Shown piece after piece: positions 1,992-56,322 of a DNA stretch of 64,000 nucleotides. Each line of letters begins with the position of its first letter. Position 1 is the stretch's first letter. The notes below the pieces were generated by a model, which had not been told where the DNA came from, ran no database searches, and saw only the letters and a program-made list of their open reading frames with translations. This stretch comes from Cyanidioschyzon merolae (lineage: Eukaryota). Location: assembly GCA_000091205.1 (NCBI GenBank), contig AP006499.2. One strand, given 5' to 3'. A program made the translations under genes and the position numbers.

Positions 1992-4103
1992 TTGTATCTA
2001 AATGGAACAACAGAAACAAAAAATCCCTTGCCCCCAAGGCGTTGCCGTTCCTCCGCACTCTGTTCCTGCACGAGCGTAAGGTACCGCGTCCCAGCAGCAC
2101 GAAAACAACTGCAGCAGCTACTGGTGCCGCCACAACTTGTTGTTGCGTCCATGGCAAACAGCCTCGGCCTACCAGCAGTACCGCTGGAGCCGCGTCTGGT
2201 GCCGGATGCTGCGACTTGGCTCTCGGAGCGCTTCTCCAATGACGATGAAGAGGAGGTGACGCGGCTCGAGGAAGCGGTGTGTCTGCAGCTGGCGGCGCTG
2301 CGAGCGTTGCGGGCACCCCTGCCCCAGGGCATTGCTGTGTACCGGTGTCGAGCGCCCGGTTCACCGTCACGAAGTGCTGACGCTTCCTCAAGTCGTGGAA
2401 CTCGCAGCGTGCGTAGAACTGTGCAGCTTCGCCAGCGGACGCGAAGCGCTTACCGGCAGGCCAGCGGCACTACAGCAGCGAACACTGGCTTGCGCACCAA
2501 CCTCGACACGAGTATTGGTGCCGTTGATGAACACATCAACGACGAGTTGATCGATAGTCAAGAACTCGAAGAAGCAAGCACCGGTGAAACAGAGCCGCGG
2601 CCGGCGCACCGAGCGACGACAGTTGCGCATCGAGTGTTTATTCCACCGCGTTACGTCCTCCCGCATCATGCGCTGATATACGAACACACGGACTGGTATC
2701 GAGAACGAGTGCGTCTGGCCATGGAAACAAACAGTGGCCAGTACGCCTCCGCTGAGGCAAGCTCGGGTCGCGCGCCTGCTCCGCGGGCGCTCACGGTGTT
2801 CCCGGCACCTGCTGGTCGCGACCGCGAAACAGACTCATCGCCCAGGAGACCACGCGAGCGTCGGTTTCGTACACGCTTTTCCGGCCAACGTGAGGGTATC
2901 CTCGAAGATGCACTTGCAACCATACTTTTCCGCGATGAACGCACGGGCGCGGGAACCCCTCCCGCTGCAGAGATGCCTCTGGATCGGCAGCTAGATCGAG
3001 GACCTGGCCTGCCTGACAGTGCCGAGAGACTGCCGGCTCCTTTGCTTGGCTATCGCGAAGAGGTTCGTTCTCATCAGCGACGCGCATATGCGCAGCGTGA
3101 AGCGTTCGGCAGCCCGCCAACGTCCATGGTCCTCAGTGACTGGCTAGAGAGCCGTCGTCGCGACGTCGCGGACCCAGGCAGTGTATCACCAGCCGACGCA
3201 ATGTCGCTGTGGAGCGCACCCCGCGCACCTCAGAGGCACATACCAGGCCGTGGCGACGCAGCGCTCGGCGTCTATCGAGAGCCACGCACGGGGCAGCGGA
3301 GCCTCCAGAGACGCTCGACAGAGGTGTTGTCCACGTCTGTGGATACGGGTCGCATTCGAGGCCCGATAACAGCGAACGAGTCGGCGCCAGAGCTTTTACA
3401 TTCACCGCCTTTCCGAGCTGGATCGATCGGTGACGATTCCTTTGATGCCGGGAGCCTGCGGCTGACTGCCCGAGGACCGAGTCGAGCGCGCCTCTCGGGG
3501 CATGTGGCATCACGCACTCGTGGACTCCCCGTAGATCACATTTCGCCAGCAGATGCGTCTCTGCCCTTAGACGAATCGTTACAGACAGATGAAACGAGCG
3601 GGCGCGTTCATGGACGCGCTGCGCTTCATCGCATGAGGCGTAGCGGTCGAGAGCTCGACGTATCCTCAGTCGCGGATACGTTCCATAGCACATCGGCAGG
3701 CAGCGCGAGCCACCACGCTTGGACGAGGGCGCCCATGGACACTGCACGTTCGACAAGCACAGCTTTTGCATCGCCGTTAACCCTGGAGCACAGAGATTCC
3801 GCAGGTAGCTCGCCGGGTGACTTTGTTGTGAACGATTGGATGTCTGCAGGGGATCGTTCCTCGCGCACCGACCAGAGCCGAGGCGGTTTCCGGACGGGAA
3901 CCGGGTCAGCCGGGGATACCACCACGATAGAAGCGCTTGGTGGTCGACGGCATCGCGGACCCAGGGATCTGGTTGTGCGCATAGAAGAAACGCTGCGCAC
4001 GCGAGCCTGGGAACGATCCACCTCTGCGGATGCATCAGCGCGAGCTTCGGGTACTGCCCGCGCTCAGGTTCGCAATGAACGGCGGCATCTGGATTCATCG
4101 TAA
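1992..4103 (+). CDS. hypothetical Ser/Arg/Ala-rich low-complexity protein (coding status uncertain)
   Basis: 703-aa ORF with no recognisable domain. A 400-aa ORF (3133..4335) overlaps antisense. Length alone favours the + ORF. GC-rich DNA makes long spurious ORFs common. Confidence 0.25.
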   Translation: MYLNGTTETKNPLPPRRCRSSALCSCTSVRYRVPAARKQLQQLLVPPQLVVASMANSLGLPAVPLEPRLVPDAATWLSERFSNDDEEEVTRLEEAVCLQLAALRALRAPLPQGIAVYRCRAPGSPSRSADASSSRGTRSVRRTVQLRQRTRSAYRQASGTTAANTGLRTNLDTSIGAVDEHINDELIDSQELEEASTGETEPRPAHRATTVAHRVFIPPRYVLPHHALIYEHTDWYRERVRLAMETNSGQYASAEASSGRAPAPRALTVFPAPAGRDRETDSSPRRPRERRFRTRFSGQREGILEDALATILFRDERTGAGTPPAAEMPLDRQLDRGPGLPDSAERLPAPLLGYREEVRSHQRRAYAQREAFGSPPTSMVLSDWLESRRRDVADPGSVSPADAMSLWSAPRAPQRHIPGRGDAALGVYREPRTGQRSLQRRSTEVLSTSVDTGRIRGPITANESAPELLHSPPFRAGSIGDDSFDAGSLRLTARGPSRARLSGHVASRTRGLPVDHISPADASLPLDESLQTDETSGRVHGRAALHRMRRSGRELDVSSVADTFHSTSAGSASHHAWTRAPMDTARSTSTAFASPLTLEHRDSAGSSPGDFVVNDWMSAGDRSSRTDQSRGGFRTGTGSAGDTTTIEALGGRRHRGPRDLVVRIEETLRTRAWERSTSADASARASGTARAQVRNERRHLDSS

Positions 4104-4408
4104 AATGAATGATGCATCGTGGTAGTCGACGAGCTGACGCGTGAGAAAGACACTGGGAAGCTGTTTTGTAGGCGCAGGGCGACCCCGGTGGCGGCGCTCC
4201 GAGCGTCCGCGGCAGGCACGATGAATACGATGCACCGGTGCCCTTCAATCGATGTTGCCTGTAGATTTTAAAGAATGGCAATTTTAGGATTGGTAATGCG
4301 TAGCAGCATCTCGAAGGGAATGGTGGTGCTTTCATGGTTCACCGACGGCAACCGGGAATCCCTTGGATTCTCGTTACACCGGTGTCAGAATAAAATGCAA
4401 CGGATCGT

Positions 4409-5038
4409 TCAAATTGGGCGTACACTGTACGCCCTGGGTATCGTTCTAGTGTCATCGACACAGGCCTGTGGAGACTTTTTCATTTCTGAGACCGCTTCCT
4501 TCATCGCCCTCTTGTCTACGGCTCGAAATGAGGCGGGCTCTCCGGTCCTTCCTGCTCGGTTGTCGGCAATGGAAAGATGTTGAAGGCAGCGTTTCAAGTC
4601 CAGATTTCGCAGATTCGGACTGCTGCCAACGCAGTTCATGCAGAGGCGGAAGTTGCGCTCTACGCTTCGCTTGCCATTTTCACCTGATTGGTAGGGAGCC
4701 ATGGTATGCGCTTCGCAACGGTGACAGTAAAATGTACTCTTGTGTTCTGGTATGCCCATTATACGTTCTGCGTCGAGGAGCCTCCTGTGGTGCGTGAAGA
4801 CTTGCTCCATAGCTCGGTACATGACAGGTACCGAGGACTCGCATCGATGCCAGCTTCCGTTTCCGTACCGAGTCCTAGACGCTTTGATGACGGTAATCGT
4901 CTGGATGATCTCTTCGACAAGCTCTCCGTCTGCTGCACACGCAAGCGGATGCTGTACAATTGGATAGAGGATTTGTTCAACGCGACATTGCCCATTAGAG
5001 AACAAGTACCCGGAAGAAAATCCAGGCTGGAGAAACAT
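4409..5038 (-). pseudogene. possible TnpB-like relic (family C) lacking RuvC-III signature
   Basis: ORF contains LVEEI (RuvC-II-like), W(x11)YRA, and HKSTFYCHRCEAH(x23)CMNC zinc ribbon in TnpB order and spacing. Where D-NAA-NI is expected it reads RNLDLKRCLQHL. Lies in an AT-richer island immediately downstream of family A copy A1. Confidence 0.3.
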
Positions 5039-5344
5039 TCGAGAAAATTTGAACCGTGTACACTCACCTCATGCAAAGCGGTGATGCGCTCTGCACAGGA
5101 AGCGATCGCTGTGATGCCTGCATTCCTAGTCCAAGGCCCTTTTCCATGGAAAAGGAGGCAATGGGTGCTTCTGAAAGCATTTCCCGTTGGATATTTCATG
5201 CTGCTGTTGCGCTCAGCTTCGTCGATAGCGATAAATAGAAAAAGGAGGGATTGGTCTTTCGGATAGAATCGACGTTGATTGGACGTGACAAGTTTCGTCA
5301 ACTTCCGGCATGAGCTTGTGAGCAAGCCGATAAAGAACGACGTG

Positions 5345-6815
5345 GCATAATAATCTATGTAAATGCATTGTTCATGAAACAAAGAAAATGTCTCACGACC
5401 ATGAAGGTATATATACATACTGACGAGCAGACGCCTCCGAATCTTCTTTGATCGGCGGCTTGCCTTAGGTATCAGTTTCTCCCCATACACTTCGAGACTG
5501 AGAAGCTGCCCTACAAAGTTTGCTCGCGTCAGCTCATCGGGTCTTGTCTCCAGAACCGCACATCGTATGATATTGATGGCGGCGTTGAAGTCTTTGTTCG
5601 CGAACTCCATGCGTTTGTTGCCGCTGTTTGAACTCATCAATGCAAGGGTTGCTAGAACCCGCGTCCTGTGTGCCACCTGCTGCTCTTTCAGCAATCCGTG
5701 CTTTTCCATCGCCGAAGCCCTCCGCTGTGTTCTCCCTATCTCGACCATCTGGTGTGTATAACCCAGCTCATGCCTTAGATTTTTCATTTCTCAAAATGAA
5801 TGGGCTTCTTTATGCCCGTAGCTAAGGACCTTCCCCGAGGAAGAAGGACATGTTCAAGAAAAACGACATATGCCTCGGCGTGCCATCGTGTGCTGAAAGC
5901 TTCGGCAATTCGCCCCGTGGAGCGATCATTGCGTTTCAGGACAGAATACACTCCTTCAATGGGGCTGAATCACGGAGCGTATGGAGGAATGGAAGGCAGC
6001 TCTACTCCCAGATAGTATCGGCAAAATCTGGAACTCAAGGGGAATGGTAAAATACTACGTTGTTCAATAGAAGGACGTTGCCGGACTTGAGGAAAAAATG
6101 TTCAACAATTCGACAAAGTGTTCGCTGCTATTGAATGAGCCTTCTCAACGAGCGAATATGAGGACGCCAAATGAATCCACTCCAGCTAGAACAGATGATG
6201 ATGTCCTCGTTCTCCTCGAGCTCGATCTTGTATACAATGAGCTCTATCTCCGAGAAAATAAACATATACGATTGGACCGTTTCGTCTGAAGCAGTTCTCA
6301 TCGGCTGAAAAACAAACCGACGTGCCTGTGCTTCACACGAATCGAGAGGTCCCATGCATGTTGTCGCTGCGATCTCGGTGGAAGATAGCCGTTTTCGTGA
6401 ACCAGGACTGGTTTTGTATGAATGTATCCCGAGTTTCCAGGATCACACGAGCAAGCTGGTGAGAAACAGAGACACCCGCAATAACTACTATTATCGCGTC
6501 GCTTTCCTTAAAGCAATCAAGTGGTCGTTTTTCTAACATGGCCGACAACAAAGTTTTTACCAGTACCTGTTTTTGGAGCAGAGCGCGCATACCTGTTTCT
6601 TTCAGTGTTCTCGACCATCCTAGTATAGTAGTATGACTGACCTGAAGAAGGAATGCAGCCCTCGTTACCATGATCAGTAAATAATATGTATCGTGCATGC
6701 ATTTCGTCTACGATCGAATCGATACAAAGCATAGAAATGTCGATCTCGTACGATACACTGCGAAGAGGCATTTGATGACACGCAGCAGGCGCGAAACAAA
6801 ACTGACGTGAAAGAC
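5345..6815 (-). mobile_element. TnpB/Fanzor-like RuvC nuclease relic, family A copy A1 (frameshifted pseudogene plus about 240-bp 3' tail)
   Basis: Minus-strand translation gives KRMEFANKDFNAAINIIRCAVL (RuvC-III D codon at 5590-5592). Upstream are decayed Zn-finger, VPDFADTIW (6008-6034) and AGVDSFG (6166-6186) blocks in different frames. About 75-80% DNA identity to copy A2 over more than 1.2 kb, including the non-coding tail 5345-5590. Confidence 0.6.
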
Positions 6816-6853
6816 TATAACAATATGCATATAATTGCTACAATCTGCCTTTT

Positions 6854-10399: not shown

Positions 10400-11800
10400 G
10401 TGCAGCAGTGAGGGTCTATCGATATATGTAGGTGGATTTGGGATTTTTGGGTCATCTTTTGGGGTGGTTCGCTTGACGCTTTGCGGTTGGAATGAAGTTA
10501 GGTTACCGTAAACGAGCTGATTCGCAGTGCCATGGAACAGGGTTCGAAAACGATCTGGTATTATGATGCAGTACACAAGGTGCACAGCGCCACGCTTCGC
10601 GTTGTTTTCCCGTGAATCATGCATTACACGAGCATTCTTCGAGATTTTTACGGCTGTGTTTCATGGAAACCCGTAGGCACAGTGATTCGGGCCGATGGAT
10701 TTACAAGAAAAACGTTCGGCCTCGTTTCTTGACGACTTGTTCACAAGCTCTTGTCGAATGTTCACTGAAATACGAAGGTAAAATAATCGACTCCGTTCGA
10801 GAGAAAAATCCAAGGCTCTATGTGGCCATGGATGAAGCGGCGTTCGATAGCAGCATGATGCCTCTTAGGGGCTATGCTGCCGGAGGCCCTGGTGTCTTCA
10901 GTTTTCATGGAACGGGGTCTTGGACCTCGACTTGAGTCATCGAAGCGATCGTTACCAGGGGAGCGCGCGTCACCGCTTCGCAAAAAAGGAGCATGAACGG
11001 ATCGAAATTACTCGATTTTTCCTCCAAACTGGATTTCTGTTTTCGCACTTGTTCCATCGCAGAAAACATTGCGCTCCATAAACCCTCAGTAGAATGGAAC
11101 AACGTGCGCCGGATTGTGCGATCGATAGAGAACTTGTCGGGGAATCGTCCAGAAAAAGCCCGTGATCGCTGGTACAGCGTCGAGGGCGTTATCGAAGGAG
11201 GGTATCGACCATCATCCGCTGTGCTCGTCAAGGGCATGTACCGAGTGATAAAGCGTGCCTTTATGCGCCATAGGCCGGTGCCCAGAGAAGTACATACGGT
11301 GGACATGTCGGAACGCATTCAAGTTTCGCGGCTGCGACAGATTCTATACAAAGAAGATAAAAACGAGAATCGAATCGTAGATTGCAACTTTTGCATCTGC
11401 ATGAAATGCGTAAACAACATACGGAAGCCGATTAGGTATGCCGGTAGCACTCGTATGAATATCCTTCGACTGCTGACAAAAGAGCAGGAGCAACGAGAGA
11501 ATCCGGCGGATTGAAAGCCCGGCATAAGAGAGAGGGGATGAAAACAGTCGTAGAAAAAGCCGGCAAACGCTGGTTCGATGACAATGTGAAGAGACCAATA
11601 CCCTTGCGCGTACACCCGAGTTAGCAAAGTGGACCGGTTCCATTCCATTCTGGAATGGGTGTATCTCAGTGCTCGCGTGTTGATGGCACTGGGAAGCGAC
11701 CCAACGTTCAATGTGTACGTCCGAGCTGGAACACCTCTTCCACGCTAGTCTGGCAAGAGAGTATCTCAGATTTCGCGTATTGCCAGAGTCGGAGCGGGCG
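10400..11800 (+). mobile_element. TnpB-like RuvC nuclease relic, family B copy B1
   Basis: ORF 10993..11514 reads ...RIVRSIENLSGN (RuvC-II-like E), W(x11)YR, C-NFC-ICMKC zinc cluster, then STRMNILRLLTKE in place of D-NAA-NILR. Upstream ORF has YVAMDEAAFDS (RuvC-I-like). The 3' tail 11514-11780 is about 75% identical to the B2 tail. AT-richer than flanks. 5' boundary approximate. Confidence 0.5.
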
Positions 11801-24030: not shown

Positions 24031-27000
24031 ATGTCGGCGGCTGTGCACTACAAGTTCCGCTCTGCGAAACACTTTGGTCGGGTGCAGTTTGAGGGGGACT
24101 TTATTCAGCTCGCAGAGCTAAAAGTAGCCATTGTGGAGCAAGAAAAACTGCAGTTTGGCGAGGACTTTGACTTACAAGTAGTTGACGCACAAACCCAGGA
24201 AGAGTACTACGACGAAGAAACCTTGATACCGAAGAACACTTCGGTTATCGTGAAACGAGTGCCTGCTGGCCAGAAGCAGGGCATATTGAGTCAGATCGCA
24301 CTCGCAAGGAAAAATGAGCGCTTCGCTGAGATTCTCGACCGCTCAACCGGCGGCACGGGTGCCACAGCGGGCGCTATTGCTGCAGCTGCACGGCAGGTGC
24401 TTGCTGGCAACCTGGGACCCAGCACAACCGCGAACACAGGCATGACGGGCAGTGAACCTGTCCGGCTCCGTCGAGGTGACGAAGACACGCGCCTTGCCTC
24501 CGTGGCCCTCGCAGCTGGCGCAGGAGACTCGGGCCCGAATCCACGAAACATCCAGCGTCCAGGCGGCCGCGTAACGGCCTCGGGAGCGATGGATGGGCCA
24601 CCGCCGGGTGCGCAGCCACCGCCAGGTTATATCTGTCACCGCTGCGGAGAGCCAGGCCATTATATCCAACACTGCACGGCAAACCTGGAAGGCGATGTGA
24701 ATATCATTCGTGTGAAGCGACCAACTGGCATTCCGCGGAGCATGCTAAAAACGATTGATGCACCTGTAGATGGAGGGACCGAGCTTCAGCTTCCAGGTGG
24801 TAAATTCGTGACCCTAGCCACAGACGATCGTGAGTTCAGCAAAGAACCCCTGGCGGTGCGAATGGCGCGCCTTGCGGAAGCACGAGCGGGGGCACGCGAG
24901 GACAATACCATCGCTTCCGACGTTACGACGATACAAGGATCCGAGACGAAGCAACCAGTGCCCATGGATAAAAAGGAATCGGAAACAACTCGTCGCCAAG
25001 TTGCTGCTTCCGATGCGCCATCGGAGAGCGCGGCGTCATCGCCGCGAGGCTCCACGCCAACAGACTCGGTGGAAAACGCTCAGCTGTTACCAGCAGATAT
25101 ACGCCCCGATTTACCCTACTTCCCGTTACCAGGAATGGATCAGAAGGAACATTTCTTTGGGACAGGCGAACTGCCCACCGCGCGTGAGTTCCAGGAAGTA
25201 ATCTGGGGTATTATTTTGATGAATAGGGATCAGCATCCAGAACTTGGGCATGACATGGAGACGGGAACTCAACGCGATGTGACGCGGGATTCGGCGGCAG
25301 CGCTCCAGCCTGAGCCCAGATCCATGGAAAGCGCTGAAGCGCCGAGCACGACAAATGAGCGTGCTGTATCAGCACAGCCGCGGCCGCGGATGACTGCTTC
25401 TGCAGAAGGAGAAAGCTACCAGGAGCGCCGGCCGCAGGCGCACGAACGAAAGACACCCACGCATGTGCAGGATGTATCCAAGCGTTCTCCAACATCTGAA
25501 GCACAAAACGTACCCGAACGAGGCGACAGAGATCCCGACAAATCAGCGCCTCGAAGTGGAAGCGTCGCCAATGCGCGTCCGATACCCTCCAGCTTCAAAT
25601 CCACAGAGACCGCGAATCATCATCTAGACGCAGAAAGGCCAAGACCAGGGCGTCGATCGTCGGCGCTCCAGGTGACGTCGATGGAACCCTCAGGTGCACC
25701 ATTTGGCGAAATCGAGTACTCGCGTGTGTCGACCAAGAATCAGCGCTTGCTACCGCCGGATCGGAAGGCTACTGAAAGCGCTCAAGCAACAGCCCCGAAC
25801 TACGGAAATTCATTGCCGAGGAAACAAGCTGCCTTTGCCCGCAGTGGAAAGATGACTGGGAATACCACGAGACCGGGGCTGCCTCTTGCGCCGCTCCAAA
25901 CGCAGCAGCAGCAGCAGCACCAGCAGCAGCAGCAGCACCAGCAGCGACAGACGCATGTGCAACGCTTTCAGGCTGCAAACCAACACGGCAACGAGGCAGC
26001 GAGCGTGGATAAACAGCACCCCTTGGACAGAGGTCAGCATGCCATGCAGAGAACGGAGCCTGCGCGAGAACGTCGACAACCTACTGTTGCAGCCGCCGAC
26101 AGGAATGCGGTATCGCGAGGCGTTCCGACTTCGAGGGCGACCTCTTCTGGTGTCACAGCAACGGGCTCTACCGCGCCCGTTCGTACCAAAATGCCGCCAC
26201 GAATGCCGCATCAGAGACCAGATGAGGATACGCTGGGTCACAGGCATCATGCAGCGTCGGACACGGAGCAAAAACCTGCCCAGTTGAACGCAAACCTCTC
26301 TCAGCCGCAACCGCTGAGCGTGTCGCGTGCTCGAGAGCGATCAGGTCTGGGAAAAAGCGCTCGGCACTCGCCGGCACCCGTGGCACCTGCTCTGCATGGA
26401 ACAACCCGAAAGCACCCGCGGGCTAGCGACTCGTCACCAGGAACCGAGACGCGCGACTCAAGACCGATTCCAGTTTTTGCTCGTCTGGGCACGAGAGCAG
26501 AAGCTGCAGCGTCTACGCGCGCCCCAGCCTCTGTGCCCCAGCGGAGCACTACCGGGAGCATCGGGTCCGCGGAACGGAGGACGGTGCCGCCAGCGCATCC
26601 GCCTCCTGCAGACGCGTCGCAGCTCAAAGGCAAAAACTCCTCCCCGATGAATCAACAAGGCGAATATCTACACCGAGCGAGTGTACGCGCACCACCAAAG
26701 GTTCCGGAAAAGCGTCCGGCAGCGACAGCAGCTGTTGGCGACGACAAGCGCTCCCGGAACACGCCGAGCTCAGCCGAGCGGGCCGCCGCTAACGTCTTTG
26801 AACGATTAGGACCAGCGATACCGGTGCCTCCTCGTCTTGCTGGGCGTATTTCGAGCGGAAAAGTCAGCGACGGTGAACGCGGAGCGAACGCCTCTACCGG
26901 TGCATCTGGTGTGGTCGCCAACGACGCCTCGAAAACGAAAACGAACCTACGGGCAGTGCACGCGAAGCAGAGCGTCCCTATGACACAGCAAAAAACACCC

Positions 27001-27072
27001 GTGCCGACATATTCCTCGAGTGAAACAGGTTCAAGTCGTGCCCGGAACAGGGCTGCAAACTTGCCGTGGTAA
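24031..27072 (+). CDS. RBBP6/Mpe1-like protein: DWNN ubiquitin-like domain plus CCHC zinc knuckle, no RING detected, long disordered tail with polyQ
   Basis: MSAAVHYKFRSAKHFGRVQFEGDFIQLAELKVAIVEQEKL...LIPKNTSVIVKRVP (DWNN). YICHRCGEPGHYIQHC (CCHC). RVKRPTGIPRSMLKTIDAP matches the RBBP6 linker. ATG at 24031; track ORF starts 23818. (CAG)n at 25903-25946 encodes QQQQQHQQQQQHQQ. Confidence 0.8.
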   Translation: MSAAVHYKFRSAKHFGRVQFEGDFIQLAELKVAIVEQEKLQFGEDFDLQVVDAQTQEEYYDEETLIPKNTSVIVKRVPAGQKQGILSQIALARKNERFAEILDRSTGGTGATAGAIAAAARQVLAGNLGPSTTANTGMTGSEPVRLRRGDEDTRLASVALAAGAGDSGPNPRNIQRPGGRVTASGAMDGPPPGAQPPPGYICHRCGEPGHYIQHCTANLEGDVNIIRVKRPTGIPRSMLKTIDAPVDGGTELQLPGGKFVTLATDDREFSKEPLAVRMARLAEARAGAREDNTIASDVTTIQGSETKQPVPMDKKESETTRRQVAASDAPSESAASSPRGSTPTDSVENAQLLPADIRPDLPYFPLPGMDQKEHFFGTGELPTAREFQEVIWGIILMNRDQHPELGHDMETGTQRDVTRDSAAALQPEPRSMESAEAPSTTNERAVSAQPRPRMTASAEGESYQERRPQAHERKTPTHVQDVSKRSPTSEAQNVPERGDRDPDKSAPRSGSVANARPIPSSFKSTETANHHLDAERPRPGRRSSALQVTSMEPSGAPFGEIEYSRVSTKNQRLLPPDRKATESAQATAPNYGNSLPRKQAAFARSGKMTGNTTRPGLPLAPLQTQQQQQHQQQQQHQQRQTHVQRFQAANQHGNEAASVDKQHPLDRGQHAMQRTEPARERRQPTVAAADRNAVSRGVPTSRATSSGVTATGSTAPVRTKMPPRMPHQRPDEDTLGHRHHAASDTEQKPAQLNANLSQPQPLSVSRARERSGLGKSARHSPAPVAPALHGTTRKHPRASDSSPGTETRDSRPIPVFARLGTRAEAAASTRAPASVPQRSTTGSIGSAERRTVPPAHPPPADASQLKGKNSSPMNQQGEYLHRASVRAPPKVPEKRPAATAAVGDDKRSRNTPSSAERAAANVFERLGPAIPVPPRLAGRISSGKVSDGERGANASTGASGVVANDASKTKTNLRAVHAKQSVPMTQQKTPVPTYSSSETGSSRARNRAANLPW

Positions 27073-27077
27073 ACACA

Positions 27078-28310
27078 GCAACTGAATATGTTGGCGATGG
27101 TGTACCAGGAAGCGAAAACGTATCGCGAACATGGGGTAAATGAATATCCACCCGGAGACATGTGCCTGCCTTTTTCGACCGGGCTCCTGCTGTCGGCTTT
27201 CGTTTTCTCCTTGCACACTTCGAACATCAGAGGCGGTGCGACGAAGTTAGGTTTCGTCAGCTCTGCGTGTCTCGTCTTGAGCGCTGCACATCTCCTGATA
27301 TTGATAGCAGCGTTGAAGTCTCGGTTCGCAGACTCCATGCGTGCAGTGCCTCTGGAGCTACTCACTCATGCAAGGAATGGTACAACTCGCGCCCTGTGTG
27401 CCACTACAGTCTCGTGATCGTCTCGTCGATGAAACACCTTTGCTCTCCGATTTCCCCTCATCTTCATCGTCAGTTGCTCTTCTTCGCTCGACGGTCGCAC
27501 AGAAGAGGATGTTTTCCGGTTTTATCGGATAGCCAGCGATGTCGGTCCTTCAGAATCCCCGAATTCCATGCTCATACCTTTCCCTTCTATTTTTATTTCT
27601 TCAAAAAAACACAGTTGTTTATGCCCTCAGATGAGGACCCTCCCGGAAGGAGACGGTCTTGCAGAAGAACGACGAAATGTGCCCTGGTATCACCGTGTGG
27701 TGAACGCTTCAGCGCTTGGCGCAGTGGCGCAATCACTAGGTTTCGTCATAGAAACGCCTGCTCTTCATAGGACTGAACCACCGAATGTACGGAGGAATAA
27801 AAAGCCGCTCTACCCTGACAGAATCAGCGATAGATCGAACGCAAGTGGAATGGAGAAATACCACAATATCCAACGGAAAGACGTCGTCAGACCTCAGGGA
27901 AAAGTCTTCAATTGTTCGATAAAATGGTTCGTGCTGTTGTATGAGCCTTCTCTACGAGCGAAACTGAGGTCGCCGAATGGTTCCACTCCCGCACGAACAG
28001 GTGGTGTCCTTGTTATCTACGAATTCGTTCGTTGAGAATATCAGTTTTTGGCGCTGATCGCATACGCTTCTTTCTTTCAGTATTCCTCAACTACCTGAGT
28101 TCGTATGGTATGGCTGACGTAAATGATGCATGCAGTCCTCCTTGCACTATTCAGTAAAAATATATCTCTGATAGACGATTCAATTACGATCCACACAGTA
28201 CATTGCATCGTGAGTCCGATCTCCTGCTCTGCACTGCGAAAAAAGCATTCGTTGACACGCAGGAACGTCGGAACGGAATTGACTTGAACAAATTCGCAGC
28301 TGAACATCAG
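27078..28310 (-). mobile_element. TnpB/Fanzor-like relic, family A copy A2
   Basis: ARMESANRDFNAAINIRRCAAL (RuvC-III motif near 27320). Collinear DNA homology to A1 from the 3' tail (27080-27320) through VRSIADSVR and AGVEPFG blocks to about 28310, with a roughly 325-bp indel relative to A1. No intact ORF. The 3' end lies within about 10 bp of the RBBP6-like stop codon (27070-27072). Confidence 0.55.
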
Positions 28311-28761: not shown

Positions 28762-29646
28762 ATGGCTCATGAACCGTTAGAACCTACTGTAATCCAAGAG
28801 GATCATACAGTGAGCGTTCCTGTCGCGGAACAAGTGACACTGCGAGTTTTACCAGAGTGGGAGCAGATCTTTCCACCACCGACACTACGCTCTGCGAAAG
28901 AGAGCGACGCGCTCTCCGCCCTGGCTTCGATTCGTCTCTGTGTCTCCTTGGATAGCACTATCTCCGACCTTGAGGAGCAAGTCAGGCGCGCATATCTCCC
29001 CCGCTGCTGTGCGTGCCTGTCGCTTCCTGAAGAGCGCATCCATGAGGCCCTCGAGAGCGCACACATCCGCTATACCGCATCTGTATTAGATCCGCAGTGT
29101 ACACTCCGAGCGCTCCGTTTGGCATCTGGGACCACGCTACGGTGGTTACGAATCCATGACCCGGAATCGCCAGAGGCATCCGCGGCAGCGGTGCAGTTGC
29201 AGACAAGCGCTCCGCAGCAGCGGCGACGAAGAACAACCGTTCAGCGCTTGGAGCCGAATACTGGCTTGACCAGCGGCGGCGCTCGTGTTCTCGTATTTGG
29301 AGAGCACTTTCCCCCGGTAGCCAGAGTTCGTTTTGGACGGGTGGTGGTGAGCGCAAACCGCATCTCTGCGCAGTGCCTATCGTGTATAGCCCCAGCACAT
29401 GAGCCGGGTGTAGTTTGCGTCGAGGTAAGTACCAGGGCGACGACTGCTTCGGAGCAGGATGCGTGGACGCATGATCGCGTCACCTATACTTATGTGGGAT
29501 ACGAACGTCTGTCCATGATCCTTGCGGTGCATGCCGCGGAACGAAGAGCCGCTACCGCCCTCACTGAGACCCAGTCGCCGTGCAGAAGCTCGAGCGAACC
29601 CCTCTCCTGGCTGCGTCGCGACCCCGACGATGAAGACCGTCGTTGA
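28762..29646 (+). CDS. hypothetical protein with IPT/TIG-like domain
   Basis: LEPNTGLTSGGARVLVFGEHFPPVARVRFGRVVVSANRISAQCLSCIAPAHEPGVVCVEVS fits the IPT/TIG pattern. Clean ATG start. Confidence 0.45.
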   Translation: MAHEPLEPTVIQEDHTVSVPVAEQVTLRVLPEWEQIFPPPTLRSAKESDALSALASIRLCVSLDSTISDLEEQVRRAYLPRCCACLSLPEERIHEALESAHIRYTASVLDPQCTLRALRLASGTTLRWLRIHDPESPEASAAAVQLQTSAPQQRRRRTTVQRLEPNTGLTSGGARVLVFGEHFPPVARVRFGRVVVSANRISAQCLSCIAPAHEPGVVCVEVSTRATTASEQDAWTHDRVTYTYVGYERLSMILAVHAAERRAATALTETQSPCRSSSEPLSWLRRDPDDEDRR

Positions 29647-33439: not shown

Positions 33440-36400
33440 ATTATGCGGGTTCTCCTTTCTTTTTTGTGTGTTTTCTTTCAGTGCGCGGCGACGTATCCAC
33501 CAACCCCCTACCTCCAAGTTACATACCCTTTACTGATTCCAGGATATTCTGGTCGTTTCATACGTCCCATCGCGTGTGCCTCGTACCTGCCGTTCCGTAT
33601 TCGCCTTTGCGCTTGAACGCTGGAGCAGATAGTTCATGGAGCTGGAACAGCTTTTCTACACCACAGAGGGCGTCGGCTCGAGGCGTGCTTCACCCGACGT
33701 AGAATCGGATCTCGTCGTCAGTTTGTGCTCGGACAGTCTGCGGATGCAGGCTTGTCTTCGCTGCACGACACGCTGGAGAAACTTGGTTGTTAGGATATAT
33801 CGTGGAAGCCGCCTCTCTCCTTTGTGATCATGCATGGAATGCGTTGTTGTCGGTTGGCAATGCGGGTTTGTGCTTGACACCCACCACAGTGGGTAGGCGC
33901 AAAGAGCGCACTGAGCCCATGTGCGCATCCGATTCGCTGGACCTTCCGCCTAGAAGGTAGCATGTGAGTTTGTTCGCCACTAATGAGCGCTGAGGCTCGG
34001 TTAGCGGACCATCAGTTGCCAGTGCTACACTCAGGGTGAGTGTCCGGCCTTTTGCTATCACGGTGATGTCCAGCTGCTGCTGTCCTTCAAGGAGCTCGCT
34101 GCGCTCCTGCTTCGAGCGCGGGCACTGTAAGCCCAAATATGTCAGCGTCTCGGGGGTCTGGTCTCCAGAGCAGGGACAGTGTGACTCCCAGTGCGACTCC
34201 AGTGTTCCTATACGGCTTAGAGCCGGTGCTGGTAGCCAGATGCCACCAACGCGGATTTTGGCGAGCCACTGGGTACCTCGAGCAAGTCCCGGGAATTCCA
34301 GCGCCTCCCACCAGTACTTGCACGTGTTTGCTAGGTTGTAGTTCCGGTATACAGTCAAGCCGGCGTTAAGGGCGCGATTTGTTCCGTGTCTACGTTCCCA
34401 TATTGTTTGGACCGTTCGCTTGAGGCGGCGGGAGCCTTGTACATTTCTGGGGAACGATTGGAGCGCATTTTCGCCTAAGAGGCGCTTCAGCCAAATCTGC
34501 GCTGATTTCATCCAAGTGTTCTAGCGGTGCGTTGGGGTCTGCATGAAAATCCGACTCAAAGAGGTGCGCATAGTGGGCCCTTTGGCCCGTATACATGCCC
34601 GGCAGCCTGCTGCTATCGCTTCTGTCGAGGCTATTTGGAGTTCAAGTCCGAGTGCCAGCGCGGTGGTTGCTCTGCTCTGCACTGAGCATCCAACAACAAC
34701 GAGTCGCATTGCCCTGTTGGCGGCTGTCTGCGGACGCGAGGCATTTGTGTGCTTCATGCCGCACCACCCAGCACCCCAGGTCGTAGGCTGGATGATACAC
34801 ATCCTTAGTGCCCTCGTACGGATTGCTAAGGGGATAGAGGGGTCGGATAGGACTGGGCGTGCGATCGCTGTACGTCTACGCATCTTGGCGATCATCTCGT
34901 TAACGTGTGCCTTTTCGTCGAGCGTCAGCATGCGACAGACCCTGCAGATAGCGATATTTTTCCCCGATCGGACTTTCCTGATTCTGCAACCGCCACGAGC
35001 GATTGCGAATGCTCTGCGAGTCTCCATGGATGACCATGACGCCGCACTTCGATGCTCCTACGTTCATCTTCCAGCGATCGACCCAGGCGCTGACTTGTTC
35101 CATGCTACCCGCAAGCGTTTCCGGGGCGGGTGCCAACAACACGACATCGTCCGCGAATAGAAGGCCTGCGAGGCGGTTCCTATGCGAGGGCTCTTTACCG
35201 GGCTCTCCGCAGTCTATCCACGGCACCTCAAGTCCGTATTGTCTGCAGTTGTTCAGCGGATCGTTGATGAAGATGTTGAAAAGGAGCGGGGATGCGGGGT
35301 CGCCCTTTTGTAGTCCACGGCGGATTCTTATACAAGGGGTTCTTGAGCTGTCGCCCAGTCGGATGCGCATCCATGAGTCTGCATAGAGCGCACGGAAGAA
35401 CGCTAAGCACTTTCCGGAGACTACGGCACGTTCCATCTTCAAAAATAGAACCTCGTGCGGGACCGTGTCAAAGACCTTTTGGAAGTCGGTGAAGCATACG
35501 TAAGTTGGTTGTCGGTCACGAATAAAGCGACGTTGCGCCACTTCAATGAGGGTCAGGGCATGGCTCATGTACTCCTCGCGGCTCCGGAATCCAGCCTGCC
35601 CTGGGGCGAAGAACTTGCGTTGCTCGAGGCCCCTCTGAGTCCGGTTCGTGGGAATGGCGCAAAGTAGCTTTATGATTGACGGGATGAGGCGCATAGTCCG
35701 GTAGTTGTTCATGTCTGTGTGGGAGTCTTTTTTGAGGATCGGTACGACTTCGGCAGTCCTCCATACATCCGGGATGTACGTTTCTTCGAACATGCCTTGG
35801 ATGAGCTCCACAAGGCGTTTGCCTAAGCTTGTGTCAGGTTCATCTGGTATCGATGGTGTCCCTGTTGTCCCGTCTTTTGGGGTCGTCAGTTTCATCCACT
35901 CCGCAGGGATACCGTCGATGCTAGGTGTTTTGCGGTTGCATGACCTTAAGAGGGTCCGAACAGATTCAGGCCAGAAGATTGGCTCGTTCCATTCCGGTAC
36001 CGGGTCGAGGCGCGGTAGTTCTGCGGCATACTGGTGCCAATAGATTCGGTTTTGGCAGTGCCCAGTTGCGTCTTCATGTAATTCTGTGCCGTGGTCCGTC
36101 CAGGCCTCATTCACTGAGGCACCCTCCGTCCTCAGCGCTTCCTTATAAACGATTGGTGTGAGCCCCAGACACTTTTTTGGTGGGTCAAGTCTCGATCGGA
36201 TATAGCGCTAGGTCTCATCTTCGTTGGTGCTCTCGAGCATAGATTTCGCCAGGGAGGCGATTTTGCGGTTTCGATCCTCCTGTTTGTCTTCTCTGGAAAG
36301 TTTCTTCTTTCTTTTGATAGCTTCCTCATGTTGCGCCTGTAGCGCCGGTAGCGCTGCCTTCGCTTCCTTGTCTCCGGCGTTGGCGCGTATGGCGGTGCGT

Positions 36401-38419: not shown

Positions 38420-38848
38420 GCAAGCTCTAGGTATATTTGGGTGCTGCAGGGTGCCAACAGCCAACTTTGCAACCAGTGCTCGGGGCAAGGCACTGGAACG
38501 GAGCGGGGGGCGCCCAGGGTGCCGCGGACGCATTCGGCGTCGTCAGCGCCACCGCCGAGAATGCAGGGCATGTGGGCATTACGCTCTTGCGGCGTGTGGC
38601 GTTGTGCTTCAGGAAACGAGGACTGGGTACAGAGAACGGGGCGGGGAGCAGGGTTGCAGGGTAAGCAAAGGCATCTTGTGGCTGTTTCTGTGCGGGCTTA
38701 CGTCGGACAGTCGCCGCAAGCCAGCCGAGACGCGAGACCTTGCGGTAAAACGGCCACAGCTGCTGCCTCTGCAGCAAGCCGCGCGATCCCACGGAGTAAG
38801 ACGAACGCCTGCGACCGTGGACGCTACTAGCGCCATTAAGGTTTCCAG

Positions 38849-38992
38849 TCCGTGCTGGTGACCTATGTATAGTGTGTCGTAGACGCCAGGGTAGATGCTG
38901 CTGCGTTCTGGAGCGCCCATGCCGTGCTGGCAACCTATAAATCGCATTTCGTGGACGCCGAGGTAGATGCTGCTGCGTTCCTCTGCCAGCCT
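38849..38992. repeat. 2 x 72-bp tandem duplication
   Basis: ccgtgctgg..acctat...tcgt.gacgcc.gggtagatgctgctgcgttc occurs at 38849 and again at 38921 with a few substitutions. Confidence 0.8.
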
Positions 38993-49940: not shown

Positions 49941-50103
49941 GGTGGCGGCTGAGCACGCACCAGCACCGCCGCTCTAAGTCGAACGACGCCAACGGTGCAC
50001 AGTAGTGGCGATAAACCCTCCCTAGACAAAACGTCTCCAACTGACGTGTAGACGCCTCCCCGTGTTTTTTGACCGGCCACCCACTACTGTTTCCAATTTC
50101 TTC

Positions 50104-51310
50104 TCATATAGTTAACCTTTTGGGAGGTTGTCTCACAAAATTCTCTCTTGTCATCTCTGGAAGTCTTTTTTCCATCACCACACATTTCCTGATATTAATT
50201 GCGGCGTTAAAGTCTCGGTTCACAAACTCCATCCGTTTCTTGCCATCATTGATTGTACTTACTAATGCAAGTCGCCCATGAACGTTCGCCCTCCTTTCCA
50301 TTTGCTATCCCGTCAGCGGTCCGTATTTTTCATATCCTCAGGGCTCCGCTGGCACTTTTCCATCTCGAATCTCTGAAGTGTGCATCCCAGCTCATGGTGT
50401 ATATACAATGCTCGGAACTCATCGATCGGTAGCGGAACGAAACGCCTTGCGCACTCCTTGTACGTTCTCGCCGGTGGAGCTGGTGTAGTCCCTTTTTGGG
50501 TCTTCCAGCGTCCTGCTCCGTATGCCACTACGAGCCTCTGACGTTCATCCTCCTTCAAGCCACTCAACTGATTGAAAAAGTTGGCAAACGCCCGCTGCTT
50601 CCCACAATACAGATTCATTCGCAGACGAGCCCACCGAGGCTTTGTATACCCTTTCCACAGCGCATCCCAATGAGCAACGCGACCTTCCATGAATTTTCGA
50701 AAAGCTTCAAAGTCCGCTCCTCGACTCGTCACCTTGCTCAAAGCCTCCAGGTGCTCTTTCACTTATGCGTTCCACGTCTCGATTTTATTCCTTGCATTCA
50801 TGATTCTGGAGTCTCGATAGTATCTTGCTCTCGAGAACTTTAAAATACTCATGCCTTTCTGAAGTAAGTTGCCGTGGATACCATCTTCCGCACGCTTGGG
50901 TACTGCGATGGTTATGATACTTGTGCCCCAGGGTCCGCGCCAACGACAAAGTCGTTATCCTGCACTTTCTGCGTCGCAGAATCCGCCTCCTTCTCATCTT
51001 CATGCTTCGTTACGGGCGAGGCCGAGCATGGAACAAGACGATCCGCCTTCAAGCGCCGACGGTGTACACACATGGATACCCCATCGGTTTCGATCACCCC
51101 AGTGAATACCTTTTGTTCGCTGACTTTCAAACGTTTGATTTCGAAGATATTCTTCTGGTACTTCTCCCGGTTTACACCGGTGAACTCCTTCCTGCTAACC
51201 TTGAACTCCGGACAGATCTCCCTCATGATGCCATGAAGGACTGCGGAATCGATGGTCACGAAATGTGCCCTGATGTTGCACAACGGAACCACGTTGAAGC
51301 GCTTCTCCAT
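50104..51310 (-). mobile_element. TnpB/Fanzor-like relic, family A copy A3 (diverged subfamily)
   Basis: Three consecutive minus ORFs in different frames: ...[12 protein letters not shown] (RuvC-I-like, near 50920-50950); RLVVAYGAGRWKTQKGTTPAPPARTYKECARRFVPLPIDEFRALYIHHELGC (50313-50762); KKRMEFVNRDFNAAINIRKCVV...NFVRQPPKRLTI* (50104-50301). 12-bp frame break at 50301/50313. May extend 5' to about 51900. The 3' end is about 160 bp from the coiled-coil gene ATG. Confidence 0.6.
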
Positions 51311-52299
51311 TAGGAACGCTTCCGTCTCTCAGACGCTTCATTGTTCCCGCGATTCAGCTCCATCTCCGCCTTGGGTTCGAGCTCTCGGTCTAGGTGCACG
51401 AAATAGCGCATAATTAGGGGATATCATCATTTTTTCACCTTTTTTCATATCTGATACCTTTTCTGCTGGGTTGACCGGCCTCAAGGGTGCACGGTGCTCA
51501 TGAATAGTCGCACGGATTATAGAATCCTCATTCGTGCACCTGCGTGATGTCTTCTTGTCGACGAACTCGATCTCCTGTTCAAGCTGGCGATCGTCCGTCA
51601 TCCCATTGGTGATGGCCCATCTTTCCTTCGCGAGAGAGACCCGGTTGGAGTGCAAACACGGCGCATATCATGAAGCCCTGGAGGTTCATGGTTAAACGGT
51701 CTCCAAGTTCGTTAGGTACCGCATGGCCCCGTGGGTGTAAATATTCCAGTCCCTCTGCATCGAGTACCGTAGAAGCTGTAGAAGGGATGCTTTTCGTGGA
51801 GGGCATGCACCCGCTCATTTCCCCTCGAGGTTTCCCCTGTGGCGAGCACCAGGTGGCGGAGAAGGGTCCTGCTGAAAAATTCTTCCGGAACCTCGGCTGT
51901 TTCGATGTCGGCCACGTCTTCATTCATCTCCTTCACCAAATGCATTAGCCCTGACGAAGCCTTTATAACACTCATGGAGTAAGACGCAACACGGTTTCTG
52001 GGAGTCTCTTGCAACGCTTCCTTGGACGGATGCTTGATATGTATAAGATGGCAGGCTTTGACAACCATCACGTCGTTGTGCCGTCTTTCTTGCAGCCTTT
52101 GACGTCGGGCCTCCTTCATTCGCTTCTTTGTCTCGTCCTGTTCCTCTTCGCACTGGACTGTGTGTTCGTTTGTATCCGCCAGCTGGCGACACTGGGCCTC
52201 CAGGAGCCTCCACTTTCACTCGCATAACTTTCCTTTTTAGTTTTTTTTCTGAGAAAGAACGCACTTTGAATGCTTCAGGTATAAACAGCGAAAAATCAC

Positions 52300-53620
52300 T
52301 TGAATACACTTACTTGAGGGTTGGAATACGATTGAACTGAAAAGCATACTTTGCTACGACTTCAATGCAAATACACCGCGTGCAGCAGAACAACACGCTC
52401 TTGATACCGATCGCGTTTCCGTTCAAGAGCAGCATGCGCGAAGTGTCTCGTGTAACTGGCTGATGTCTCTGGTGCACGTGTCCAGCCCCCTACAGAAAAA
52501 AAAACAGAGACTCACGACTAACTGGCAACGATATGACAATTTCTTTCCCCCCTCTAAGGTAAACGTTAAAAGGCGAAAAGGTTTCCATATTGTCGAAAGT
52601 TTATTTTATAGGCGAAACGTCCCGCGAGCCGGACGTGTCTGCCAGACCAGTGCTTCATGCGACCCCAGTGGAAGGTGCTTGCTGGAAACCCGAGCAACTC
52701 GTGCGAAATGCAGTTTATTATGGGACTAGGAGCGGGTATGCTGCGTCAGGGCGTCGGCCTGGTCGCAGTTATCTCCTTACATATCGCTTGGCGCTGCCGC
52801 AGGCACTAGGTCTGTCTGCAGAGCTTGCAGGCTCCCAGAAAGATTATGTACTCTGGCGCTGTATCGGGAAAAGCGCTCCTCGATTGGACGCCCTCTGTGG
52901 TACGGTAACGCGGTTTTGTCTCCGCGATCCATCTGTTCCAGCGGTTTAGGCGCCACTACGGGTGCTCATGGTAGGTACTCGCGCTCGCTAGAACGTAAAA
53001 ACCGACCAGTATGTCCGCGATGAAGCATAGGTAATGTAACTTGGGAGTAGGGAGTTTGATGGATACTTCAATGCGCACTGAAAAAAATAGGAAAAGAAAA
53101 AGCGCATAATCGGCGAACGCTGGCCAATGTCAACGTTTTGTCAATTAAAAAAATCTGCGAATACCTGACCACAACGAAATGGCACCGATGCGACGGGCGC
53201 GCTCAGTTTCCACCCCGAAAAGACGGGAATGACAAGCGCTGCACAAACCGCAACGACCGCTTGTGCGTGATACGTATGAGCAAGAGCCTGGAGCAGTGAG
53301 ATAGGGACCTGGACGCTGCCATCAACATTCTTCGACTGCTGCGAATGAAGCTGGAGTCAAAACGAGAGACCAACGAATTAAAAACCGGAGGTATGAGGGA
53401 GCGAAAGGAGGCTATTGCAGAAAAGGTCCACAAATCCAAAGTATCAATGACTACAGGAAGAGACCAAAACTCTAGCGTGCGCACCCGAGTGAGTAACGCG
53501 GAACCTTCCATGGTAGTCTGCCGTGGGTACCGGGGAGCCCCGTGTCCATCGCGAGACACTCTCGCAGAGCGTCCGCCTTGTTTTCGGAGGAAGCAGGCGG
53601 AAAAGCGGCAACGCCATGCA
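52300..53620 (+). mobile_element. TnpB-like relic, family B copy B2
   Basis: + strand 53300-53341 translates DRDLDAAINILRLL (near-canonical TnpB RuvC-III) preceded by HRCDG...KRCTNRNDRLC (decayed Zn finger) in the same frame after a stop. Upstream GFHIVESLFYRRN (RuvC-II-like E, about 52595) and W...VEG...AVYY in a second frame. Tail 53350-53600 is about 75% identical to the B1 tail. Carries about 0.4 kb extra internal sequence relative to B1. Confidence 0.5.
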
Positions 53621-54963: not shown

Positions 54964-56322
54964 TCTCGAGAAGTGAACTGTTTACCTCGACGCGTGCAGA
55001 GGCGCGTTCAGCGGCTCACGATTCAGAGCCTACACACAACGCAGAAGACCCGCGGAGGCGGACGACGAGGAGGAAGGGTTCCAGGTCGAGAATCCGCGCG
55101 CTCGGCGGATGCGACGCCTCTTTGCGAGCGCGCCTCGTCAGCCGTGCTCGAAGTGCTTTTGCCGATAACGAAGTGTTTACATTGACCACTGGATCCCAGA
55201 TTATGGGGTGTGTATTACGATTCATGTAGTCGTCCACCATGATGCATCATACCTCCCAGTTCCGTTTCCTGTTTTCGGATGTACCGGTCGTTTTGTACAG
55301 TCTATTGTGCGGCGAGTGCCAGCCGTGCGTTATCCGCCTTGGCGCCTGAACACTGCTGGCGCGGATCCGTCTCGGAGACAGAAGGGCCTAGCCATACCAC
55401 TGAGCGCGTCGGCTCGAAAGGTCGTTCACTAGTCACAGAATTAGGATTCTTTATCGTTCTGGGAGCCTGCAAGCTGCGCAGAGAGACGTACTGGCTGCGG
55501 CAGCGTGTAGCGATATACTGGGAGACCACTGCGACCAGGCCGACGCCCCGACGCTCCCTAACTGCCCTAGTCCCAGAATAAACTGCGCTGCGGACGAGTT
55601 GCTCAGTTGCCACTACAGCACGCGCCACTGCAGCGCCGCATGAAGCACGATCCGAGCAGACTCGTCCGGCTCCCGGGGCCTTCCGCCCATGAGGTAAATT
55701 GTCGACAATGCGGAAAACTTTTCCCCTATTTGGAGTTTACCGTAGAACAGGGAAAGAAATCGTAATCTCATTCCTAGCTACTGATTCGTTTCTCTTTTTT
55801 GTTTTCTATAGCGCGCGCTCGATACGCGCATTTACGTATCTGATAGACTTGAGATATGACGCCACAGAGTCTATGACGTTTCGATCTTGCACTGGGAAAA
55901 GCTTCGGTGCATTTCACACTGCAGGCGCACCCGCTCTCGGTGTCACGTTTCAGGGCAGGGTTGCGGTGCGGCTCACGTCGCCGCGTCTGTTTTCTGCAGG
56001 CGCAGCACGAGGTACCTGCGGAACCCCATAATGGATAATTCTGGACCGCTGGTGAGCCCGCATAACGCAATACCTCTACCAACTGGCACGGATCCGATGG
56101 GTATGCCTAGAACACTGCGAACAGTTGAACTCGTCGTTGCCATGTGCTCGAGCGATGCCCCCGGTATCAGCTTCTTTCCATGCCTGGAAACGTGATCGCA
56201 AGAGGCGGGCCATTGATGCCACGAAATCGGGGTCTCTGGTGGGACAGGCTGCTGTCGTATAGCGCATCGTACCCAGAAAACGCGTATGGGCATGGACATG
56301 CCTCTATGACTGCGTTCCTCAT

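Follow-up and report, generated by a model that had tools for sequence, protein, structure and literature searches.

The repeat copy A2, on the minus strand at 27090-28295 of the 64,000-nucleotide stretch of Cyanidioschyzon merolae DNA analysed here (the window), is very probably a dead relic of the Fanzor1 transposon family of this alga, that is, of CMe-1A and its relatives. It is described as an internally deleted copy of a putative element of the CMe-1 family that carried a DDE_3 transposase gene as well as a Fanzor1 gene, on the evidence of blastn, nhmmer, metagenome copies of the same subfamily and the additional length of the spacer in which it lies. Its 3' end falls somewhere in 27073-27102 and its 5' end in 28292-28296. 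Two other minus-strand copies in the window were used for comparison. A1 (5349-6820), likewise a relic of the subfamily to which A2 belongs, has other internal breakpoints and adjoins a repeat of family B (4373-5348), while A3 (49965-53085) is a copy of complete length with frameshifts and stops that possesses all three RuvC motifs and serves as the in-window reference for family A.

Extent of A2 and its match to A1

Sensitive blastn within the window aligned A2 27114-28030 with A1 5384-6227 (63%, E 1e-80) and A2 28039-28288 with A1 6564-6811 (67%, E 4e-26). The two matches lie in order, bearing out the description of A2 in an earlier note on this DNA as a decayed repeat copy of the family of A1, collinear with it for about 1.2 kb. 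Between them 336 bp in A1 (6228-6563) face 8 bp in A2; the indel of about 325 bp reported in that note is real, while the A1 coordinates given for it were about 60 bp off. The motif RDFNAAINIRRCAAL, also reported for A2, was recovered on the minus strand with its R at 27323, inside the open reading frame 26652-27365. This minus-strand frame of 237 amino acids, which opens with ...NRDFNAAINIRRCAALKTRH..., had rightly been regarded as an artefact: its first 60 or so codons are the Fanzor1 C-terminus and the remainder is antisense to the coding sequence of RBBP6, so that it is a chimera and no gene. A2 does adjoin the stop codon of the RBBP6-like gene, tail-to-tail and directly after the TAA at 27070-27072, as had been stated; its supposed extension to 28310 was not upheld, the aligned 5' ends of the subfamily placing its 5' end at about 28292-28296.

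Family A corresponds to CMe-1A

Fanzor1 is a eukaryotic TnpB-like RNA-guided nuclease. With its frames stitched together, A3 reads VGADPG ... IDEFR ... RDFNAAINI, and the metagenome copies of family A carry VGADPG, (I/V)DEFR and RDFNAAINI. The stitched A3 protein has 197 relatives of up to about 590 amino acids in hot-spring metagenomes, and at least 408 related loci were confirmed in a scan of hot-spring metagenome contigs. Coverage profiles of 80 loci gave a unit 3.1-3.3 kb long, whose sharp 3' edge lies about 150 bp past the end of the protein match. The 5' module of CMe-1A, about 650 bp (model 1-650), also occurs solo at 55209-55863 (plus), 16565-15983 (minus) and 33492-33963 (plus), and these solo modules together with the one in A3 explain the long inverted repeats I1-I4 of the window.

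CMe-1A has been described as a Fanzor1-encoding C. merolae family of about 150 copies and about 3 kb with old, diverged copies, which has no terminal inverted repeats, whose target duplications are undetermined and whose 5' 635 bp are common with TE-N2_CMe (Bao and Jurka 2013, PMC3627910). Family A fits this description in its length of about 3 kb, its lack of terminal inverted repeats, its TE-N2_CMe-like solo 5' module and its occurrence in C. merolae. On the strength of the published description it is identified here as CMe-1A, already known since 2013.

The assignment to Fanzor1 was made with a broad profile, for which 79 remoter relatives were drawn from the output of an exhaustive HMMER search (1475 clusters). 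Across RuvC-I, RuvC-II and RuvC-III this profile matches two Fanzor1 proteins of solved structure, 9CF0 (E 1e-20) and 8GKH (E 4e-14); therefore family A encodes Fanzor1. A PDB search with the close-family profile gave no match, the red-algal proteins having diverged too far for it. Pfam likewise returned none for the single open reading frames of A1, A2 and A3, the stitched A3 protein and five full metagenome proteins; the family is too diverged for the OrfB/TnpB models, and PF07282 gave sub-threshold matches from two distant relatives only. An AlphaFold2 model from a 15-sequence alignment reached a pLDDT of 35 and was discarded.

The non-coding 3' end of CMe-1A, about 190 nt, is strongly conserved irrespective of reading frame and has hairpin potential, with 76% of cells paired versus 36-52% with slid partners. 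A consensus RNA structure for this end was sought and found no support: RNAalifold returned no pairs, and the covariation of hand-drawn helices was not above that of shuffles. A subterminal hairpin was noted there in two versions before GCGTT, namely CGTTCGA-ctt-TCGAACG and CGTTTTTC-tttt-GAAAGGCG, at the loci L004-L083 (e.g. L009 5636-5680 and L013 3596-3650) and in the window at 49965-50010. The 5' end of CMe-1A is TTTTTTCGATGACAAAACGTTTACATTGACCATGG, and about 22 nt of the second hairpin version resemble it in direct orientation. These end features recall HUH- or tyrosine-enzyme transposons rather than DDE elements. At L005 4789-5168 (protein P0092), units of 75 bp (25 aa) are repeated in tandem, in varying number, inside the Fanzor1 reading frame and just upstream of its RuvC-I motif (...VVDAMKHEEKKEASLETQKVQDN...).

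Internal organization of A2

A full-length nucleotide profile of CMe-1A was built from metagenome copies and searched with nhmmer. All segments of A2 lie on the minus strand. Next to the host gene is a 3' tail peculiar to the A1/A2 subfamily (27102-27154; alignment of A1, A2, L058, L016 and L079), followed by a Fanzor1 C-terminal remnant with the start of the conserved non-coding 3' region (27155-27378; model 2965-3190, nhmmer E 1e-28) and by a segment corresponding to model positions of about 828-1027 (27402-27614; nhmmer E 4.5e-12, with which tblastx to A3 agrees). Beyond these are the decayed C-terminal part of a transposase of the IS630/Tc1-mariner DDE_3 type (27760-28032; tblastn with the L049 and L058 peptides, E 1e-13), the site of a deletion specific to A2 (28031-28038) and the 5' terminal region of the A1/A2 subfamily (28039-28295; blastn to A1 6564-6811, 67%, and aligned 5' ends).

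The RuvC-III motif RDFNAAINI of A2 is located at 27323-27297 on the minus strand, and the fragment of about 30 residues around it was found by hmmsearch with the Fanzor1 profile of 79 relatives (E 2.9e-7). Model position 1027 is joined nearly straight to 2965, about 1.9 kb (1028-2964) having been deleted together with RuvC-I and RuvC-II; the complete triad (D of RuvC-I, E of RuvC-II, D of RuvC-III) is absent and RuvC-III alone is kept. The breakpoints differ between the two relics, as A1 keeps model positions 2843-2964, which A2 is without, and A2 keeps about 828-1027, which A1 is without. The second gap, of about 330 bp, represents a deletion in A2, since the segment is present in A1 (6228-6563), L058, L049 and L011, and it took out the N-terminal half of the DDE domain. 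The loss of about 1.9 kb of the Fanzor1 gene means that A2 is dead; judged from its sequence, it can neither transpose nor cleave.

A DDE_3 transposase head in the A1/A2 subfamily

The 5' part of A2, about 700 bp, is not part of CMe-1A and is common to A1, L058, L049, L011 and L079. In L049 this head stands directly upstream of a nearly complete Fanzor1 region on the same strand. Its conceptual translation reads ...FLMDNAVFH...YIRPYSPWLNRIEG..., and the conceptual peptide of L049 matches the Pfam family DDE_3 (PF13358) with 37.7 bits against a cut-off of 28.6 (E 2.3e-9). In tblastn, the peptides from L049 and L058 find A2 28032-27760 (E 1e-13) and A1 6310-5886 (E 5e-16); the DDE_3 fragment of A2 itself has no Pfam match. 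Inspection of the aligned copies of the subfamily revealed no inverted repeat between 5' and 3' ends. No TA target-site duplication was found, a 12-nt direct repeat being the only repeat that flanks A2, and a search for intact relatives of the DDE_3 remnant gave its own 90%-identity cluster, P0371, only.

The ancestral element may thus be pictured as a DDE_3 transposase gene followed by a Fanzor1 gene on the same strand, five decayed copies being the basis for regarding it as one element. The search brought up no copy in which DDE_3 and Fanzor1 are both intact, and therefore a nested insertion could also have made the two genes neighbours. The DDE_3 remnant links a C. merolae Fanzor1 family that has been unclassified to elements of the IS630/Tc1-mariner type and hints at how it formerly moved. 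If A1 and A2 do preserve an ancestral architecture with DDE_3 upstream of Fanzor1, the classification left open in 2013 would be settled.

Position of the element end with respect to the stop codon

When 56 independent CMe-1A 3' ends were made into a profile, it aligned A3 through to the family terminus (...TCGTTCGACTTAGAGCGGCGGT, 49965); its matches to A2 and A1 end at 27156 and 5419, respectively. All copies of the A1/A2 type lose similarity to CMe-1A at one place, model position 3190-3199, beyond which the tail of the subfamily itself is alignable to about 27102 in A2 and 5370 in A1. A1 and L016 may have about 20 nt further in common, equivalent to about 27082-27090 of A2, and across about five independent copies of the subfamily no convincing alignment was obtained for 27073-27101 of A2. 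The first 17 bp after the stop, 27073-27089, have no consistent similarity to other copies of the subfamily and form a spacer that is not assignable to the element. The earlier note had homology running up to or across the stop of the RBBP6-like gene; the subfamily alignment ends at about 27102, with the element end 10-30 bp past the stop. The A1 sequence 'gacgtggcataa' (5339-5350), put forward as the counterpart of the stop region, lies 20 bp beyond the last family homology in A1 (5370), on the end of family B. As far as the alignments of the copies allow the edge to be placed, the 3' end of the element stays clear of the stop by 10-30 bp.

A 12-nt direct repeat is a possible target-site duplication, with its left copy GCAACTGAATAT at 27078-27089 and its right copy GCAGCTGAACAT at 28296-28307, directly outside the 5' end of A2. 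The two copies match at 10 of 12 positions, which was equalled in 61 of 2000 shuffles. Were this marginal repeat a target duplication, the element would extend over 27090-28295 and would have been inserted 17 bp past the stop. Tc1/mariner elements make TA duplications, with which a duplication of 12 bp does not fit.

Family B was considered as a downstream continuation of A1 and rejected, as it has its own ends and many independent copies. It is a separate repeat of about 1 kb, found in the window at 4373-5348, 10695-11663 (inverted) and 58748-59613, with at least a dozen copies in metagenome loci. Its reading frame 4409-5038 (minus) contains paired CxxC motifs and matched neither Pfam nor the Fanzor1 profile. 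The window also contains, at 38845-38980, two 64-nt copies of a repeat family termed D5, 72 bp apart and 80% identical.

The host gene and the history of the insertion

The gene that A2 adjoins (24031-27072, plus strand, with its TAA stop at 27070-27072) belongs by Pfam and orthologues to the RBBP6/Mpe1 type. Its open reading frame of 1084 amino acids contains DWNN (PF08783, E 4e-29) and a CCHC zinc knuckle (zf-CCHC_2, PF13696, E 5e-8), and thus has the N-terminal DWNN plus zinc knuckle by which the RBBP6/Mpe1 family is recognized. Pfam detected no RING or U-box in it at E <=0.1, and the precomputed domains of the Cyanidiales relatives P0001-P0004 are DWNN and zinc knuckle only; it is because no RING/U-box is detected in either that the name 'RBBP6-like' is used. 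RBBP6/Mpe1 is a cleavage and polyadenylation factor. Among named relatives of the protein, that of the red alga Cyanidiococcus yangmingshanensis is the nearest. Near residue 660 a glutamine/histidine repeat differs in length between strains (1006, 1009 and 1013 aa). Downstream lies an IPT/TIG-domain gene (28762-29646, plus), identical to CYME_CMQ081C of C. merolae 10D, and the order ribosomal L6e - RBBP6 - TIG is the same in Cyanidiococcus (L001, L003) and C. merolae. One metagenome contig, L091 (JGI 3300050370, Ga0506604_000420), has plastid-type PsaA and PsaB after the nuclear TIG gene and is probably a chimeric assembly.

The spacer between the RBBP6-like and TIG genes measures 452 bp in Cyanidiococcus versus 1689 bp in C. 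merolae, and the additional 1.24 kb or so is the size of A2. The repeat-family profile found no CMe-1A-like sequence in the Cyanidiococcus loci or their spacer. The Cyanidiococcus proteins P0002 and P0003 end in ...ALPW-stop and that of C. merolae in ...NLPW-stop. It had been suggested that the insertion supplied or altered the 3' coding end of the gene; the orthologues keep LPW-stop before an element-free 452-bp spacer, and therefore the C-terminus and stop do not derive from the insertion. This comparison of the 3' end with orthologues, which the earlier note had itself proposed, returned just the outcome that the note had named as contrary to its view. Set against the orthologous sequences, the C-terminus and stop of the RBBP6-like gene are shown to be ancestral.

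A2 is present in 10 of the 10 C. merolae-like contigs that span the spacer, all about 99% identical to the window, and no empty-site allele was found among the contigs reached through the TIG protein cluster, whose members differ by at most three residues, and through the relic reading frames. The spacers of C. merolae and Cyanidiococcus gave no alignment by which the insertion point could be mapped.

From these observations the following history may be proposed. The ancestral element would have carried a DDE_3 transposase gene of the IS630/Tc1-mariner type and, after it on the same strand, a Fanzor1 gene. A copy very probably landed tail-to-tail in the spacer between RBBP6 and CMQ081C, about 10-30 bp past the RBBP6 stop, at a time later than the separation of Cyanidiococcus and earlier than the divergence of the C. 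merolae-like populations sampled. It has lost about 1.9 kb of its Fanzor1 gene and about 330 bp of its transposase gene, and of the nuclease a RuvC-III fragment alone remains. The coding end of RBBP6 was left untouched, and the 3'UTR with the cleavage/poly(A) site is most likely now located in element-derived sequence.

The 3'UTR of the RBBP6-like gene and alternative readings

The poly(A) signal of C. merolae is UAAA, located 3-35 nt upstream of the cleavage site (PMC8831791). After the RBBP6-like gene TAAA is found at 27070, where an A follows the stop codon, and within A2 at 27137; the next one is not until 27798. Cleavage is therefore predicted at 27077-27108 or at 27144-27175, that is, at the edge or in the interior of the relic. 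Among eight near-identical contigs with 40 variable sites, 2 of 301 positions are variable in 27073-27373, an interval whose limits were set post hoc, versus 38 of 1388 elsewhere in the spacer (binomial p 0.018), the density being about four-fold lower than the roughly 2.7% of the rest of relic and spacer. This reduced variation, with its post hoc boundary and small sample, is compatible with constraint on a UTR. As the element starts at most 30 bp from the stop, the 3'UTR and poly(A) site are most likely in element sequence, and by geometry, UAAA positions and the lower polymorphism the RBBP6 3'UTR probably runs into the relic. Neither CMQ080C nor CMQ081C is listed in the supplement to the paper on polyadenylation in C. 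merolae (PMC8831791), and the short contigs L094 and L095, possible transcripts, carry no poly(A) tails.

Two alternative readings concern the effect of the insertion on the host gene. An element end that overlaps the stop codon, so that the insertion gave the stop or changed the C-terminus, would be expected were A2 to follow the autonomous CMe-1A collinearly to its 3' end, as the 86 or so model positions after 27156 would reach about 27070, and the 'GTGTTT' at 27076-27071 is loosely like the family-terminal 'GCGTTT'. This reading is nevertheless highly improbable, for the Cyanidiococcus orthologues share LPW-stop without an element, copies of the A1/A2 type end in a 3' tail peculiar to them and in no case match the final 60-70 nt of CMe-1A, and the A1 12-mer cited for it sits on a family B repeat. 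The other reading, which would add to the main explanation, is that the RBBP6-like gene has co-opted the 3' 300 bp or so of the relic as its 3'UTR and poly(A) region, and that these are under purifying selection. The four-fold lower density of variable sites in 27073-27373 (binomial p 0.018) and the UAAA at 27070 and 27137 (PMC8831791) speak for it; the interval was, however, delimited post hoc on 40 variable sites in eight closely related contigs, and cleavage at 27077-27108, if the UAAA over the stop is used, would leave hardly any element sequence in the mRNA. Such co-option is possible but rather doubtful.

The remaining readings would give A2 a product of its own. Two plus-strand reading frames inside it, 27088-27417 (109 aa) and 27568-28035 (155 aa), were annotated by metagenome gene callers on all orthologous contigs and might be taken for host genes. 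They are antisense to recognizable transposase and Fanzor1 remnants, have no Pfam family on record and are missing in Cyanidiococcus, where the entire spacer is 452 bp, and at 56% G+C long reading frames are expected by chance; that they are real genes is scarcely credible. A guide-RNA (omega-RNA-like) scaffold or an antisense regulatory RNA given off by the Fanzor1 3' end of A2 would agree with the conservation and hairpin potential of the non-coding 3' 190 nt or so of CMe-1A (76% paired versus 36-52%) and with the low polymorphism of the equivalent part of A2. Against it, shuffled controls show as much covariation and RNAalifold predicts no consensus structure, A2 is without the terminal hairpin region and its match to the family 3' profile ends at 27156, Rfam gives no match, and A3, the sole full-length Fanzor1 copy in the window, is frameshifted. 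The chance that A2 still has such a function appears slight in the extreme, and the reading of A2 as a dead relic is preferred to both.

For annotation, the interval 27090-28295 is best masked, as a transposon of CMe-1 type in decay, and neither the antisense frame 26652-27365 nor the plus-strand frames 27088-27417 and 27568-28035 should be annotated as genes. A2 is an ordinary decayed copy of a known family and matters little beyond annotation. Only 24 nt separate the 3' terminus of A3 (49965) from the ATG (49940) of a coiled-coil-like reading frame of 262 amino acids that follows on the same strand (49940-49152); the promoter or 5'UTR of this frame would have to be inside the transposon. With elements a few tens of bp from gene ends in a very compact genome, 3'UTRs and 5'UTRs of the host may derive from elements.

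Comparison with known systems

The derivation of host 3'UTRs and poly(A) sites from transposons is a general phenomenon. A2 resembles such cases in lying within 30 bp of a stop codon and in having a UAAA inside it, and its sequence may be used in the mRNA. Compared with CMe-1A, both A1 and A2 possess its 3' 230-350 bp or so and A2 additionally the segment of model positions of about 828-1027, whereas in the A1/A2 variant a decayed DDE_3 transposase gene of about 1 kb takes the place of the TE-N2-like module at the 5' end, and the final 50-80 nt differ.

The red-algal Fanzor1 proteins align with the solved structures from Spizellomyces punctatus (8GKH) and Parasitella parasitica (9CF0) at DPG, DEFRT and NRD.NAA.N. 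They differ in that a CxxC zinc ribbon is not clearly recognizable between RuvC-II and RuvC-III, and in A2 about 30 residues around RuvC-III are left of such a protein. Finally, Mariner/Tc1-type transposons with a Fanzor1 passenger have been described, among them SPu-1 and Mariner-2_PGv (Bao and Jurka 2013, PMC3627910). While terminal inverted repeats, TA duplications and an intact copy were not found in the A1/A2 subfamily, it is like these elements in having a DDE transposase of the IS630/Tc1-mariner type just upstream of Fanzor1 on the same strand, as seen in L049 and in the remnants A1 and A2.
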